Of a DNA stretch of 44,765 bases, positions 6,097-9,997 are shown in pieces. The stretch's first letter is position 1. The number at the start of each line of letters is the position of its first letter. This DNA comes from a virus. Its lineage: Duplodnaviria > Heunggongvirae > Uroviricota > Caudoviricetes. The DNA is taken from positions 1 to 44,765 of IMG/VR virus record IMGVR_UViG_3300020152_000001, one strand, 5' to 3'. Position numbers and translations under genes: made by a program. The notes under the pieces are model-generated. The model did no database searches. It was not told where the DNA came from and was given only the letters and a program-made list of their open reading frames with translations.

Positions 6097-6378
6097 AATG
6101 CGCCGGGTTCTGTTGCCGGGCCCCGGCGGCCCCGCTCCGCGCCCTTAGGCCGCGCGAGCAAACTCTTGGTTGTCGTTCGCAGTTGAACGCCACCTGCCCC
6201 GCGCCTGTCGATACCTACTTCGCCCCCATCACCTACCCACCGAACACCCTCCACGGGTCCGGGGTCGTGAGGCCCCTGGCGGCCCCGAGTCACGAATGGG
6301 CCGGCCGATGAGTATGTGGTGGAGGCGGCGGGTGCCGCCCCCGCGTCCAGACACAAAGCCCTCGCTTTCGCAAGGAGC
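6097..6378 (-). ncRNA. ssrA: circularly permuted two-piece tmRNA: acceptor piece ~6378-6317, IVS 6316-6228, coding piece 6227-~6097
   Basis: ...GACGCGGGGGCGGCACCCGCCGCCTCCACCA precedes GGGGGCGAAGTAGGTATCGAC; the two form a 7-bp acceptor stem with G3.U70; tag frame 6180-6145 after CAACT reads ANDNQEFARAA-stop. Confidence 0.93.
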
Positions 6379-6381
6379 CGT

Positions 6382-6411
6382 GATGTAAGCATGCCTTACG
6401 CTTGATGTCAA
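6382..6411 (-). promoter_or_regulatory. tmRNA promoter
   Basis: TTGACA-N15-GCTTACATC, close to the Caulobacter housekeeping promoter pattern; CGTAAG in spacer. Confidence 0.75.
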
Positions 6412-6674
6412 GCGTGTTTGCGGCGCGGAATAAAACCGTCGCTGACTTTTATCGCGACGCTGCCTTTCAGCGAGTGGACCTTCGGCGCTTCTGGCGTGCC
6501 GGCCGCGACAGCAACTTCGGCGATGCCAGCGGCGTCGATCGCGCCTTCGGAGATCAGCCTTCGCGCTTCGACGATGTCGACGACGCGAACAGGCGACAGG
6601 CGGCCGTTGTCGAGACGGCGGAGTAGGCGAAAGCGCCCGGCGCGGGCGCGGCTGTGTTTGATCGTCAGACTCAT
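6408..6674 (-). CDS. hypothetical protein (88 aa)
   Basis: ATGA overlap with the thyA stop. Confidence 0.65.
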
Positions 6675-7552
6675 TTGCTCACGGGCGCTTTGATCGTTGG
6701 GTGTGGCTGGTAGCCTACGAGGTTGAAGTCTTCGAAGACGAAGTCGTCGATGTCCTGGCGTGTTGGGTTGATGATCATCTCCGGCGCCTTGCGAGTTTCG
6801 TCCCAGCGGCTGAGTTGAAGTCGCGCCTGATCGAGGTGGTTCTCGTACAGATGGCAATCGCCGATCGTATGGACGAACTCTCCGGGCTCAAGGTGGCAAA
6901 TCTGTGCGATCATCATCGTCAGCAGCGCGTAGCTCGCGATGTTGAACGGAACGCCTAGGAAGAAGTCACCGCTGCGCTGATACAGATGGCAGTTCAGCTT
7001 GCCTTCCTGAACGTAGAATTGGAAGAGCACGTGGCACGGCGGCAGCGCGACATCGGCGAGATCGTCGGGGTTCCAGGCCGTGACTATGTGCCGGCGGCCG
7101 TGTGGGTCCTTCTTGATGCCGTTGATCACGCGCCAGAGCTGGTCGATGCTCTGCTGTCCCCAACAACGCCACTGCTCTCCGTAAACGGGTCCGAGGTCGC
7201 CGTTCTCGTCTGCCCACTCATCCCAGATCGTGACGCCGGCTTCTTGCAGGCTGCGGACATTGGTCTCGCCGCGAATGAACCAGAGGAGTTCGTGGATGAC
7301 GGACTTCAGATGCACACGCTTCGTCGTCAGCAGCGGAAAGCCTTTGTCGAGATCGAAGCGCATCTGCGGCGCGAAGATCGAGATCGTCGGGCCGTTGCGG
7401 GTCTCGGCGCGGACGCCGCGCTCCAAGATCAATTCCAAGACGCGGAGATACTCGTCGTCGAAGACGTTGGTGCAAGGAGATGGGATCGAACCACCGACCA
7501 CAGCATTATCGGTGCTGTGCTCTACCGCTGAGCTATCCTTGCTCGAAATCAT
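6671..7552 (-). CDS. thyA: thymidylate synthase
   Basis: [43 protein letters not shown] motifs; start uncertain because a tRNA overlaps the 5' end. Confidence 0.95.
7468..7542 (-). tRNA. tRNA-Ile(GAT) nested in the thyA frame, with C33
   Basis: GCAAGGA...TCCTTGC-A-CCA; GCTC/GAGC D-stem; CAGCA-CCGATAA-TGCTG; GGTGG-TTCGATC-CCATC. Confidence 0.9.
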
Positions 7553-7582
7553 ATTTGCTCTGTGTCTTTCTACCGGAGAAAT

Positions 7583-7768
7583 TCAAGCCGCTCCGTGGCG
7601 GACGCGAACTCTCAGAGGTCCAAAGCACCAGAAGGATTCCTTGAGGTGCCGGCGTGGGAATTCCCAGGCCCAGTCTTTCCAAGAGGCGAACAGAGCGTGC
7701 TCTTCGCCCTTCCAATTCCAATAGAGCCAGTAGTTGGCTCCTCGTCGCGGGAACGTGAACCGTTTCAT
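7583..7768 (-). CDS. Trp-rich hypothetical protein
   Basis: ATGA overlap with the upstream gene. Confidence 0.65.
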   Translation of the reverse strand: MKRFTFPRRGANYWLYWNWKGEEHALFASWKDWAWEFPRRHLKESFWCFGPLRVRVRHGAA

Positions 7769-7968
7769 TTGTGCTCGACGATGCGAACGCGATGACTGCC
7801 GCCGAAGCGACGATCAGCGAACGCTTCCGCTTCTGCCTTGCTGTTGAATTTCTTCGCTGCGGGTTTGATCGTCGTCCAACCGTAATGCGCGAAGAAGCCG
7901 ATCTTCATCTCGCAGTAGAAGAGAGTGCCGGCCAGACGCACGCGATGTTCGATCAGCCAGCAGGACAT
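7765..7968 (-). CDS. hypothetical protein
   Basis: ATG at 7968 with GAGGAAG RBS. Confidence 0.7.
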   Translation of the reverse strand: MSCWLIEHRVRLAGTLFYCEMKIGFFAHYGWTTIKPAAKKFNSKAEAEAFADRRFGGSHRVRIVEHK

Positions 7969-7969
7969 C

Positions 7970-8497
7970 TCACTTCCTCTTCGAGCGCACCCGCCATTTG
8001 TCGAGTGGGAGTTTGGTGTCGACGTAATTGATGCCATCGCCACATCCGCTGCTGTGCTTGATGGCAGCGCGGACGGCTTTAATGGCTCCGGAGTCCTTGT
8101 GTGCAAACATGCAGCCGAGCGCGACTGAAGCTCCGGCTCCGCGTGCGAAGTATTCGGGAATCTTCGCACCTCGGTACACGAGCAGCGAGCTGTTGTTTTT
8201 CGAGACCGACGTGAAGTCGATCAGCATCCGCTTCTTGCGGCTGTCTTTCGGTACGGCGACGATGAGAAGTGTTAGGTCGCCGGGATAACTTGGCCGAGCG
8301 CCCGTTTCCACGATCTCTTTCGCCATGGCGACACAGTTGTCGTCGCTGTCGGCGTTGCCGGCCATGCCGACTACGCACTTGTAGTCCTTGGTGCTGAAGA
8401 TCGACAGCTTCGACATCGCCCCCATGGGCATGTCTTCGTCGAAATTGACCCGACGATCAGCAGCAATGACGCCGTCGCGATAGACGAGAACAGTCAC
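7970..8497 (-). CDS. HslV/proteasome-beta-like Ntn hydrolase
   Basis: M-T start, YRDGVIAAD, VVGMAGN and ARGAGASVALG motifs. Confidence 0.7.
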   Translation of the reverse strand: MTVLVYRDGVIAADRRVNFDEDMPMGAMSKLSIFSTKDYKCVVGMAGNADSDDNCVAMAKEIVETGARPSYPGDLTLLIVAVPKDSRKKRMLIDFTSVSKNNSSLLVYRGAKIPEYFARGAGASVALGCMFAHKDSGAIKAVRAAIKHSSGCGDGINYVDTKLPLDKWRVRSKRK

Positions 8498-8514
8498 AGA
8501 GGACCCTTCAGCTC

Positions 8515-8547
8515 AAAAGAAACTGTGGGCTTGCCGTAGAGTCCCAC
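8515..8547 (-). terminator. hairpin plus U-rich tract at the 3' end of the large RNA
   Basis: GTGGG-N13-CCCAC then AGTTTCTTTT. Confidence 0.5.
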
Positions 8548-8935
8548 TACTCCCCCGTGCCCGAAGGCGGCTCATCCGCGTGGCCACGCGAACTCACATG
8601 AGGAACGACGCTATCGGAGTCGCGTCGCGGCATGCTGGGTACTTTCGGCCGCCGGGACCGCCCCGACCTCATGCCTGTTTCACCTTCCCCAGCACTTGCA
8701 GAATTTTGCCGATGACGGTGTCCCCGCCTTCCCTGCTGCCCGGCGACAGCTCTCTCCCTCACACGCGCTACCCGTGCGCTTAGCCAGCTCCACACGGGGC
8801 GGGGAGACGCTGAGACCCGGCCCCCGAGCACTGGCCGCCCAGACAGGGAAAACTCGGTTTCCAATCATCGCCGCCGGTGTCCCCGGAGAACGGCACGATC
8901 GGCACAGCGGTACACTTCAGTCTCGCTTCGGCGAT
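8515..8935 (-). ncRNA. ~420-nt multi-pseudoknot RNA (GOLLD-like candidate)
   Basis: No credible ORF; three crossing helix pairs; many hairpins; TTGACT-N16-TACGTC promoter at 8940-8967; 3' hairpin plus U tract. Confidence 0.65.
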
Positions 8936-8974
8936 CGGCGACGTACCGGCCTCATGCGGGGAGTCAAAATCAAA

Positions 8975-9042
8975 CGCAGCAGGCGGGTGCGTCCCGCGTA
9001 TCCCTCAGGCGTTGAGGGCGTCCTAGCCTAGACGACCGCCGC
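8975..9042 (-). ncRNA. tRNA-like cloverleaf with intact stems, non-canonical loops and no CCA
   Basis: GCGGCGG/CTGCTGC, GTC/GAC D-arm, CCCTC-AACGCCT-GAGGG, GCGGG-ACGCA-CCCGC. Confidence 0.55.
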
Positions 9043-9046
9043 GAAA

Positions 9047-9117
9047 TGCTGCCCGGGACGTTCCGCTATGGCGCGGATTTAAGCTCGACGGCCTTGTGTC
9101 GAGCACTCCCGGGACTG
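9047..9117 (-). ncRNA. three-way-junction small RNA element
   Basis: CCCGGGA/TCCCGGG encloses GCTCGAC/GTCGAGC and TCCGC/GCGGA hairpins. Confidence 0.4.
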
Positions 9118-9192
9118 CAAACAATCAAGACTTGCGCTTCTGCTTCATCGACTCGCGCTTTCGCCCACGCTGACCGGGGCCGCCTTGACCTT

Positions 9193-9280
9193 TGGTGCCG
9201 AGAGAAGGAGTCGAGCCTTCGGGGCTCCGAAGAGCAACGCGTTTACAGCGCGCTCCCGCCCCCTACGGGTCTACCTCGGC
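9193..9280 (-). tRNA. tRNA-Tyr(GTA)
   Basis: GCCGAG/CTCGGC stem, A-CCA end; GCGCG-CTGTAAA-CGCGT; long variable arm with UUCG; C54 in T-loop. Confidence 0.87.
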
Positions 9281-9294
9281 AATATCTGGCTCTC

Positions 9295-9438
9295 AGCAGG
9301 TAGGGTATGTCGCCGAGACTTTCGCTCCGACGCCTTCAAACCGCCCCGCCGGAGACCTGACTAAACTCATCCGGACCCGCCCCACGTGCGGCCACTTACG
9401 CCACCGCCGTGATCTCTCCGGTTAAGACCCCCCACCTG
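9295..9438 (-). ncRNA. ~140-nt structured RNA element
   Basis: 10-bp closing helix GCAGGTGGGG/CCCTACCTGC; CCGGAGA/TCTCCGG; GAAA-tetraloop hairpin. Confidence 0.45.
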
Positions 9439-9443
9439 CTTTT

Positions 9444-9499
9444 TGGTGGAGGAAGGCCGCTCTTGGCTCGACAGCGGGTCCGCGCCGTCGACTTCCGCC
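9444..9499 (-). ncRNA. miniature tRNA-like element ending in ACCA
   Basis: GGCGGAAG/CTTCCTCC-A-CCA with one mismatch, enclosing TCGACGGC/GCTGTCGA and GCC/GGC hairpins. Confidence 0.5.
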
Positions 9500-9618
9500 C
9501 TGCCATTGCCGCCCCGGCAGGGACCTGTAACTCATGGTGAGCAGGACCTAGAAGCTCGCCTGGGATTTCGTTCCCCGGGGTTAGAAACGCGGAAAATCTT
9601 CCCCGTTCTCCGTAGTCC

Positions 9619-9661
9619 TGGTGCCGCGTTGACACCCACCTAAAGGCCGGCGTTACCCGGC
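9619..9661 (-). ncRNA. minihelix-like element ending in ACCA
   Basis: GCCGGGT/ACGCGGC-A-CCA with one mismatch, enclosing one hairpin; 3' end identical to that of tRNA-Leu (ACGCGGCACCA). Confidence 0.4.
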
Positions 9662-9756
9662 GAATTCATCGTCGCCTCCCTTGGTCGAGTATCGACAGCG
9701 GGGGTCTTACGCGTTCGTCACGCCGCCCCCGTCTATTCGGTAGCTCAGAGTAAGGG

Positions 9757-9785
9757 AGGATTGCACACGTCAGCGAGACTGTCAA
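9757..9785 (-). promoter_or_regulatory. putative promoter of the ncRNA array
   Basis: GCTTGACA at 9780-9787 upstream of the CCTCCCTT/AAGGGAGG-closed hairpin; -10 weak. Confidence 0.45.
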
Positions 9786-9793
9786 GCAGGATT

Positions 9794-9997
9794 TTAGGCT
9801 TCGAGCTGGCGTTCGCAGAAGGCCGCGTAGACGTTGGGTCGATTGGCCCCGGAGCCTTCATGGTTCTCGGCCGAGGTCGCCGCCGCTCGCATGCACTCAG
9901 TCAGCGTGCGGTATTCGCCAACGGGGACCGTAGTCGTTGTGTCCCAGAGCCCGAAGAGCTTCAAGTGGATGACGACGACCAGGACCCAGACTTCCAT
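9794..9997 (-). CDS. small protein with hydrophobic N-terminus and two Cys
   Basis: TAATG overlap with the portal stop. Confidence 0.65.
   Translation of the reverse strand: MEVWVLVVVIHLKLFGLWDTTTTVPVGEYRTLTECMRAAATSAENHEGSGANRPNVYAAFCERQLEA

Follow-up and report, generated by a model that had tools for sequence, protein, structure and literature searches.

An isoleucine tRNA gene nested in frame at the 5' end of a phage thymidylate synthase open reading frame

Introduction

The closest described system is selC, the gene of tRNA-Sec, which is nested in the 3' end of the selB open reading frame (ORF) in Alphaproteobacteria according to a bioinformatic report (Mukai 2021, PMC8124441). The author states that no nested tRNA had been described in a bacterial ORF before, proposes an either/or model for its expression, and cites animal mitochondria, in which tRNA genes overlap protein genes or are integrated in them (PMC8124441). 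When we searched the full-text literature for tRNA genes that are nested or embedded, the only bacterial or phage case to emerge was that of this report, which a review also cites. In the tRNA-punctuation model of mitochondria, excision of the tRNAs sets the ends of the mRNAs. The thrU-tyrU-glyT-thrT-tufB operon of E. coli is a bacterial example of a tRNA–mRNA co-transcript. Human and other eukaryotic thymidylate synthases carry a disordered N-terminal extension of about 25–30 residues, and the PDB chains of the human enzyme align from residue 26–32.

Here we describe a complete tRNA-Ile gene that lies in frame in the 5' end of a thymidylate synthase (thyA) ORF. The DNA analyzed, referred to below as the window, is a stretch of 44,765 nt with a G+C content of about 61%. 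It forms the start of a complete virus record of 132,731 bp with direct terminal repeats, which is a single metagenome assembly of an uncultured phage.

The locus resembles selB/tRNA-Sec in several respects. In both, against an alphaproteobacterial background, an uninterrupted ORF takes in a whole sense-strand tRNA, whose codons specify an extension that is not part of the conserved fold; in both, tRNA processing and synthesis of the full-length protein are proposed as alternatives. The two cases differ in the position of the tRNA, since processing at the 3' end of selB leaves a non-stop message, whereas processing at the 5' end of thyA removes the start codon. The selB arrangement also spans many taxa and joins a tRNA and a protein of one pathway, whereas the thyA case comes from one phage genome and the two functions have no known link. 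As in mitochondria, nucleotides are shared by a protein and a tRNA, and excision sets mRNA ends. Mitochondrial starts, however, normally coincide with the tRNA 3' end or follow it directly, whereas in thyA a GTC codon comes first and no start follows for 10 codons; moreover, with 133 kb and long non-coding stretches, this phage genome is not driven by compaction. The tufB operon and a viral contig described below (L002) likewise place tRNAs and a protein gene on one precursor, but there the protein gene has its own start 3' of the tRNA, which the window thyA lacks. The human enzyme shows that a disordered tail of about 30 residues before the ThyA fold is compatible with activity, although its tail is encoded in the usual way and acts in protein turnover, whereas here the tRNA would dictate the tail.

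The RNA island and its relatives

The tRNA-Ile gene belongs to an RNA island on the minus strand, which is flanked by the portal gene and by the scaffold and major head genes. The landmarks are as follows.

11727-9997, minus strand: portal gene
8497-7970, minus strand: gene of an HslV-like peptidase
6369-6145, minus strand: permuted alpha-type two-piece tmRNA (Rfam)
4513-2620, minus strand: scaffold and major head genes

ARAGORN placed tRNA-Tyr, -Ile, -Met, -Leu and -Pro in the island, which also holds small ORFs and thyA. The alpha-type tmRNA and a match to a Rhizobiales sRNA family in the Rfam scan of the window point to an alphaproteobacterial host. The promoter scan of positions 6300-9900 gave no sigma-70-like site.

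A portal-based search returned three viral and two ENA contigs, which represent only two lineages (L082/L088 and L083/L084/L087) with portal identities of 62–69%. An alignment search with the small upstream ORF retrieved the same contigs again, and a search with the HslV-like protein yielded no closer phage relatives. Both lineages share the island order Tyr, Asn, (Phe), Ile, ORF2, tmRNA, Trp, Met, Leu, Pro. In these relatives, the CCA of tRNA-Ile is followed by 15–18 nt containing a good Shine–Dalgarno (SD) sequence (−6.2 and −5.8 kcal/mol), and then by the ATG of ORF2. No thyA is present at the site, and there is no ThyA match elsewhere on the contigs, which are fragments (3–19% complete). 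In the window, the corresponding junction is composed of the following features.

7583-7768, minus strand: conserved small ORF, 61 aa, 65% identical to its L082 counterpart (E = 3e-24; alignment A3)
7553-7560, minus strand: GAGCAAAT, copy 1 of an 8-nt direct repeat, directly 5' of the ATG at 7552
7468-7542, minus strand: tRNA-Ile(GAU), 75 nt or 25 codons, CCA encoded, C33, all stems intact (ARAGORN, Rfam)
6671-7467, minus strand: thyA body, 797 nt, intact ThyA domain with all catalytic residues (Pfam, alignments)
6673-6680, minus strand: GAGCAAAT, copy 2 of the direct repeat, across the thyA end and the ORF2 start
6408-6674, minus strand: ORF2, 88 aa, positional counterpart of the gene directly 3' of the relatives' tRNA-Ile

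The thyA body exactly fills the gap between the CCA and the ATG of ORF2. By this comparison, thyA is cargo wedged between tRNA-Ile and ORF2 and remodeled at both ends, with neither a start codon nor an SD of its own. The differing neighbors in the window and in the relatives identify the flanks of tRNA-Ile as a hot spot for gene gain and loss.

The tRNA-Ile gene

The tRNA-Ile gene scores 66.7 bits against a gathering score of 29 (Rfam RF00005), which makes it the best-scoring tRNA of the island. The minimum-free-energy fold of its 75 nt in isolation is the cloverleaf (z = −3.0), and its CCA is encoded at 7470-7468. An earlier annotation made from the letters of the DNA only, the sequence-only reading, had described a whole tRNA-Ile in frame in the 5' end of the thyA ORF (7552-6671), and ARAGORN, the Rfam score and the ORF coordinates bear this out. 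The gene is orthologous to the tRNA-Ile of the two related lineages. Compensatory changes, compared across these three lineages, were found in the anticodon stem (CAGCA/TGCTG in the window, CCAAA/TTTGG in L082, CCGAA/TTCGG in L083) around an invariant loop. The T and acceptor stems also vary in sequence across the three lineages with their pairing kept.

The anticodon loop, CCGATAA, has C at position 33, as the sequence-only reading had remarked, in place of the U that is nearly universal among elongator tRNAs. C33 is common to the tRNA-Ile of all three lineages of the phage group, and the 23 other distinct tRNAs sampled have T. Because C33 recurs in every lineage, the stems covary and the other tRNAs keep the usual base, C33 is a selected trait of this tRNA-Ile and not decay caused by the overlap. 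Phage tRNAs have been proposed to bear anticodon-loop changes in order to evade host anticodon nucleases (PMC10264068, eLife). The phage encodes a PNKP-type phosphatase, an Rnl1-type RNA ligase and a kinase, which are parts of a tRNA repair system, and C33 together with these genes fits the escape idea; position 33 is not mentioned in PMC10264068.

The ThyA protein

The Pfam PF00303 match (E = 1e-113, 379 bits) covers profile positions 2–265 of 266. It starts at residue 34 of the 293-aa ORF, the position opposite residue 3 of E. coli ThyA in the alignment. The protein agrees with every invariant column of a 30-sequence alignment (A1), including C173, R52, R153, R154, R193, D196 and N204, and the alignment to E. 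coli ThyA shows all active-site residues, among them the catalytic Cys (PCH) and the dUMP-binding Arg. The thyA gene has a GC3 of 0.80 and a CAI of 0.708, the 75th percentile among 92 phage genes. A second thyA or a thyX was not found in the phage, which leaves the window thyA as its only thymidylate synthase gene.

The next-best ThyA sequences are at most 68% identical, and the 119 nearest homologues span 63–68% identity. All 119 start before the invariant Tyr35: 111 begin three residues before it, and 8 are extended by up to 19 residues. At the other end, the window ThyA terminates in Lys, where the homologues have V (115), I (3) or K (1); its length to the C-terminus is preserved despite Lys for the usual Val. 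In the AlphaFold2 model, helix A comprises residues 30–45, and residues 1–29 have a pLDDT below 50 and are predicted to be disordered. The modeled ThyA fold begins at the first full codon past the CCA (GTC, Val30).

Candidate start codons

The ORF runs from the ATG at 7552 to the TGA at 6671 (293 aa). It is stop-free and in frame across all 75 nt of tRNA-Ile, which lies wholly on its sense strand, with the ThyA domain directly after it. The ORF scan and the Pfam match thus agree with the sequence-only reading, in which the frame continues from this ATG through the tRNA into the N-terminal helix of ThyA. Four codons are relevant to the start.

7550-7552, minus strand: ATG, first in-frame start of the 293-aa ORF, 7 nt 5' of the tRNA; weak SD (GAG, −2.1 kcal/mol)
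7499-7501, minus strand: in-frame GTG at the 3' end of the anticodon stem/start of the variable region, within the tRNA; no SD (+0.3 kcal/mol)
7463-7465, minus strand: GTC (Val30), first full codon 3' of the CCA and first residue of predicted helix A
7436-7438, minus strand: in-frame TTG (Leu39), start in the public gene call (255 aa); SD energy −2.5 kcal/mol

The ATG, the GTG and the TTG are the in-frame starts of the long ORF. The codons after the CCA read AAC GTC TTC GAC GAC GAG, none of which is a start or near-cognate start codon, and a script found no ATG, GTG or TTG in any of the three frames from the CCA to the TTG at 7438. This upholds the earlier statement that no start lies between the CCA and helix A and that the other option is the GTG inside the tRNA. 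A tRNA-punctuated or leaderless message would have a start codon within a few nt 3' of tRNA-Ile, and none is found there. The SD energies do not discriminate among the three candidates, all of which are at background (−2.1, +0.3 and −2.5 kcal/mol versus an internal-codon median of −2.5 kcal/mol). SD sequences are often weak phage-wide: even when the best early start is taken, −6 kcal/mol is reached by 45% of the genes. A start context of GAGCA, 1–5 nt and ATG is shared by three consecutive starts, and was set aside as it is not a phage-wide motif.

The TTG at 7438 was chosen by the public gene call and is the first canonical start 3' of the tRNA. If ThyA began there, on RNA freed by tRNA 3' processing, the protein would have 255 aa, helix A would lack its first half and the overlap with the tRNA would be a longest-ORF artifact. 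The TTG would be usable on the processed RNA, and its SD energy is not worse than that of the ATG at 7552 in a phage in which weak SDs are common. However, its GAG lies 12 nt away, a long spacing for an SD, and bacteria start with TTG less often than with ATG or GTG. Of the 16 residues in helix A, a protein begun here would also lack 9, with the invariant Tyr35 among them. As an N-terminus this short occurs in 0 of the 119 homologues, the public call looks atypical, and we consider the TTG start unlikely.

Open frame and uniqueness of the junction

One of the three sense frames of the tRNA-Ile gene is open, and it is the thyA frame. Among 28 distinct phage tRNAs in the collected loci, a given sense frame is open in about 40% of cases. 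The sequence-only reading had suggested a look at whether related phages keep the frame open: both lineages do have it open in their tRNA-Ile, and neighboring ORFs enter or cross the gene there. Since a frame of this kind is open in about 40% of cases by chance, and in the relatives too, it needs no special explanation. The real anomaly is an otherwise normal thyA without a start codon of its own. The tRNA-coded stretch itself has poor codon adaptation (CAI 0.48).

No protein matching residues 1–50 of the long ORF was found in a collection of 5.8 billion proteins. A tblastn search of GenBank phages with the first 60 residues gave tRNA genes or ThyA N-termini, never both together, and an exact 28-nt pattern from the tRNA-Ile 3' end had no match in viral contigs. 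In these searches the junction occurs in this genome alone, and no second example speaks for selection on the open frame. A 135-kb contig with a similarly placed thyA (L006) was dropped as a relative, as it is not syntenic and its thyA has an ordinary SD and ATG. The best viral ThyA relative, L002, has its thyA ATG 16 nt 3' of a tRNA-Pro and without an SD (+1.9 kcal/mol). A tmRNA beside the tRNA-Pro and thyA of L002 was considered as well, and Rfam found none.

The sequence-only reading had gone further and proposed a switch that couples tRNA processing to dTMP supply. In this adaptive form, a special case of translation through the tRNA, selection would have favored the nesting for the contest it sets up between maturation of the tRNA and synthesis of ThyA. 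The geometry does make RNase P cleavage compete with initiation at the ATG at 7552. For tRNA-Sec in selB, the same model has been proposed (PMC8124441). The junction is unique, however, the relatives have no thyA at the site, and an open frame needs no adaptation. To our knowledge, isoleucine decoding or tRNA-Ile has no biological link to dTMP supply, which also counts against a switch. A riboswitch-like alternative leader fold was sought and rejected, as the 171-nt region folds no better than its shuffles (z = 0.58) and the cloverleaf is kept. Without such a competing fold, with SD energies at background, without conservation and without a known isoleucine–dTMP link, the proposed coupling is unsupported, and we give a dedicated switch a slim chance.

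Flanking genes and probable expression of thyA

The thyA ORF is closely packed between its neighbors. On its 5' side it is bounded, in frame, by the TGA of the conserved small ORF (7585-7583), 30 nt 5' of the ATG at 7552, and the ATG of the small ORF overlaps the stop of the preceding ORF (ATGA). The small ORF lies 40 nt 5' of tRNA-Ile in the window, and other genes intervene in the relatives. The 8-mer GAGCAAAT occurs 7 times in the 133-kb genome when both strands are counted, and its presence at both ends of the thyA ORF is unlikely to be due to chance (about 0.003–0.01 by rough estimate). Had an integrase-type event inserted thyA, part of the tRNA should recur at the far end of the gene; the sole match there, 22 nt at 73%, we took as chance.

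At the 3' junction, ORF2 resembles its counterparts weakly but in a matching position, with an MSL start, GIAE and PKVH-LK motifs and a location directly before the tmRNA. It lacks the SD of its orthologues, and the thyA stop TGA overlaps its ATG (AAATGA). Since the SD was lost and the two genes overlap, ORF2 translation probably relies on ribosomes translating thyA. By giving up its SD for this overlap, ORF2 argues that thyA is translated.

This bears on the possibility that thyA has no working start at all. The gene could be a young pseudogene of an accessory function that the host can supply, or the reading could reflect a one-base consensus error or polymorphism. For example, the GTC at 7465-7463 may originally have been GTG, which would place a start 2 nt after the CCA on a near-leaderless message after processing. 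Val30 aligns with the annotated Met1 of ThyA from Rhizobium phage RHph_N1_10, whose N-terminus (MADHQYLRVL) is similar to that of the window ThyA; it is the first residue in helix A, and its codon is one substitution from GTG. The L002 thyA shows that tRNA-adjacent starts without an SD exist for this gene, and the window genome rests on a single metagenome assembly. Yet the GTC coincidence is weak, because 3 of the 6 codons from the CCA to the Tyr are one substitution from a start. The 265 codons carry no other lesion and their codon adaptation is high, ORF2 has traded its own SD for the thyA overlap, and an upstream in-frame ATG with an open path exists, for which we roughly estimate a chance of about 0.06–0.3. 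The intact residues, the codon adaptation, the status of sole thymidylate synthase gene and the ORF2 overlap favor an expressed over a dead thyA. A very recent loss of the start may nevertheless have occurred, and we regard a thyA without a working start as rather unlikely.

Proposed translation through the tRNA

Tentatively, at a rough probability of 45%, we explain the locus by translation of full-length ThyA from the unprocessed precursor, through tRNA-Ile. The anatomy of the locus, its synteny, the intact, codon-adapted enzyme and the N-termini of the homologues are observed; the start used and the order of translation and processing are what we infer. Full-length ThyA would be made on the polycistronic precursor before tRNA-Ile is excised. 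Helix A stays whole, with its invariant Tyr, only if translation starts at the ATG at 7552 or the GTG at 7501, and initiation at either would have to precede the RNase P cut at 7543/7542. Ribosomes from the tightly packed upstream ORFs may help initiation at the ATG. As the stop of the small ORF lies 30 nt upstream of it, re-initiation by terminating ribosomes is possible. With the 5' acceptor strand under an initiating ribosome, folding of the tRNA would be delayed. The 25 tRNA codons would then provide most of the disordered 29-residue N-terminal tail of ThyA. After the last ribosome, RNase P and 3' processing would convert the same RNA to tRNA-Ile, and ThyA initiation would end.

The sequence-only reading had argued that excision of the tRNA removes the thyA start, and this holds, as the RNase P cut parts the ATG at 7552 from the thyA body. 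Its description of the two products as mutually exclusive per transcript is too strong, because processing of a precursor can follow its translation. Translation leaves the tRNA sequence intact, so the two fates would compete without being strictly exclusive. Against translation through the tRNA stands the normally fast 5' processing of tRNAs, which would remove the ATG at 7552. The weak SD of this ATG, the absent SD of the GTG at 7501, the poor codon adaptation of the tRNA-coded stretch, the chance level of the open frame, the lack of a second genome with the junction and the choice of the TTG in the public call count against it as well.

The tRNA could also act as an intron. Its 75 nt would be excised, and a 10-nt leader and the thyA body would be rejoined by the phage RNA ligase into a message for a product starting MISNVFDDEY. 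The length of the tRNA is a multiple of three, which keeps the joined message in frame, and the phage does have the Rnl1-type ligase, the PNKP phosphatase and the kinase. However, Rnl1 acts on broken anticodon loops of tRNAs, and RtcB and Rnl2-type ligases were not found in the phage. The ends to be joined would be held only by the acceptor stem, which departs with the tRNA. We know of no case of such mRNA splicing in bacteria or phages, and the full-text literature search likewise found none. This route to ThyA is very improbable.

Of the forms that translation through the tRNA could take, it is more likely that the overlap is a tolerated by-product of cassette insertion at a tRNA-adjacent recombination hot spot than that it is a purpose-built regulator. 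In a bolder form, tRNA-Ile would be an exploited dual-use sequence. On a precursor tracked closely by ribosomes of the coupled upstream ORFs it would supply the ThyA tail and drive ORF2; otherwise the tRNA would be excised, ThyA and ORF2 would be turned off, and the phage tmRNA, 300 nt downstream, would free the stranded ribosomes. L082 may offer a mirror case, an ORF ending inside the same tRNA-Ile, which would make the arrangement a recurring device of the phage group. We place this form at the speculative end and hold it to be improbable.

Conclusions

If thyA is dead or starts at the TTG, the junction would be a mere curiosity of one metagenomic genome. If ThyA is translated through the tRNA, the locus would bring the nesting of a tRNA in a bacterial-type ORF to phages, and to the 5' end of an ORF, for the first time. 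It would then also offer a clonable system of about 1.2 kb, with thyA complementation as the readout, in which ribosome loading is set against tRNA folding and RNase P. For annotation, the locus is a warning that masking of tRNAs before gene calling may silently shorten a real protein, as the 255-aa call may illustrate. For phage biology, the locus shows that cargo genes can be grafted flush to tRNAs in phage RNA islands, where they borrow the starts and stops of their neighbors.

tRNA genes and ORFs at the thyA junction

The overlap of tRNA-Ile with the 5' end of thyA has a possible counterpart in a related phage lineage (L082 and L088), which carries the same tRNA island, and a partial parallel in L002, the contig holding the best viral relative of the window ThyA (63% identity).

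L082:12676-12933: small candidate ORF running through tRNA-Ile; identical copy in L088
L002:2605-2720: tRNA-Pro and thyA start

The candidate ORF has no stop ahead of tRNA-Ile, reads through the entire tRNA and terminates 3 nt past the CCA, at a TAA; it may be a mirror image of the window's thyA/tRNA-Ile overlap. Its GC pattern is coding-like (0.63/0.37/0.69), and a PHROG search gave no match. In L002, the thyA ATG lies 16 nt past the tRNA-Pro end and has no SD (+1.9 kcal/mol); this is a normal start, as against that of the window thyA. The position of tRNA-Pro directly before L002 thyA indicates that the arrangement of thyA directly behind a tRNA arose at least twice.

Both ends of the window gene showed unusual features.

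Window 7553-7560 and 6673-6680: GAGCAAAT, 8-nt direct repeat

The two copies bracket a segment consisting of the leader, tRNA-Ile and thyA. Recombination that gave rise to the junction may have left this repeat behind; alternatively, the repeat may reflect a start context common to both sites. The final codon and stop of thyA (AAATGA) overlap the next gene, and the C-terminal residue is Lys (window 6671-6676). Val or Ile is near-universal at this position, with V in 115, I in 3 and K in 1 of 119 ThyA homologues.

The phosphate-binding loop, TRNGPT (residues 51-56; window 7390-7410), is shorter by one residue than DRTGTGT, the usual form. ThyAs of Rhizobium phages (GRNGGT) also have RNG in this loop; despite this, the window protein as a whole is nearer to cellular ThyAs (66-68%).

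Island cargo

Both thyA (6671-7467) and an HslV-like peptidase gene (window 7970-8497) are missing from the islands of L082 and of L083, a second related lineage. In their place, these two islands hold additional tRNAs (Asn, Phe, Trp) along with other small genes. This differing cargo identifies the island as a hot spot of gain and loss. The island also contains a match to Atu_At1, a Rhizobiales sRNA family (window 9536-9644, minus strand; 69.1 bits, gathering score 60).

tRNA-repair-like genes and position 33 of tRNA-Ile

Outside the window, the phage genome (G000) encodes three mutually adjacent tRNA-repair-like genes.

G000:C1 about 66097-68771 (= L094:512-3186), minus strand: tRNA-repair-like gene set

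The products are a PNKP phosphatase domain protein (PF25109, 1.5e-34), an Rnl1-type RNA ligase of 492 aa (PF09511, 1.7e-21) and an AAA_33 kinase (4.8e-20).

tRNA-Ile(GAU) was compared across all three lineages of the phage group.

Window 7468-7542: tRNA-Ile(GAU)
L082:12854-12928: tRNA-Ile(GAU)
L083:13131-13206: tRNA-Ile(GAU)

All three share the CCGATAA loop with C33, which stays constant while the anticodon stem covaries; the 23 other distinct tRNAs from the sampled loci have U33. C33 may represent an escape of tRNA-Ile(GAU) from a host anticodon nuclease.
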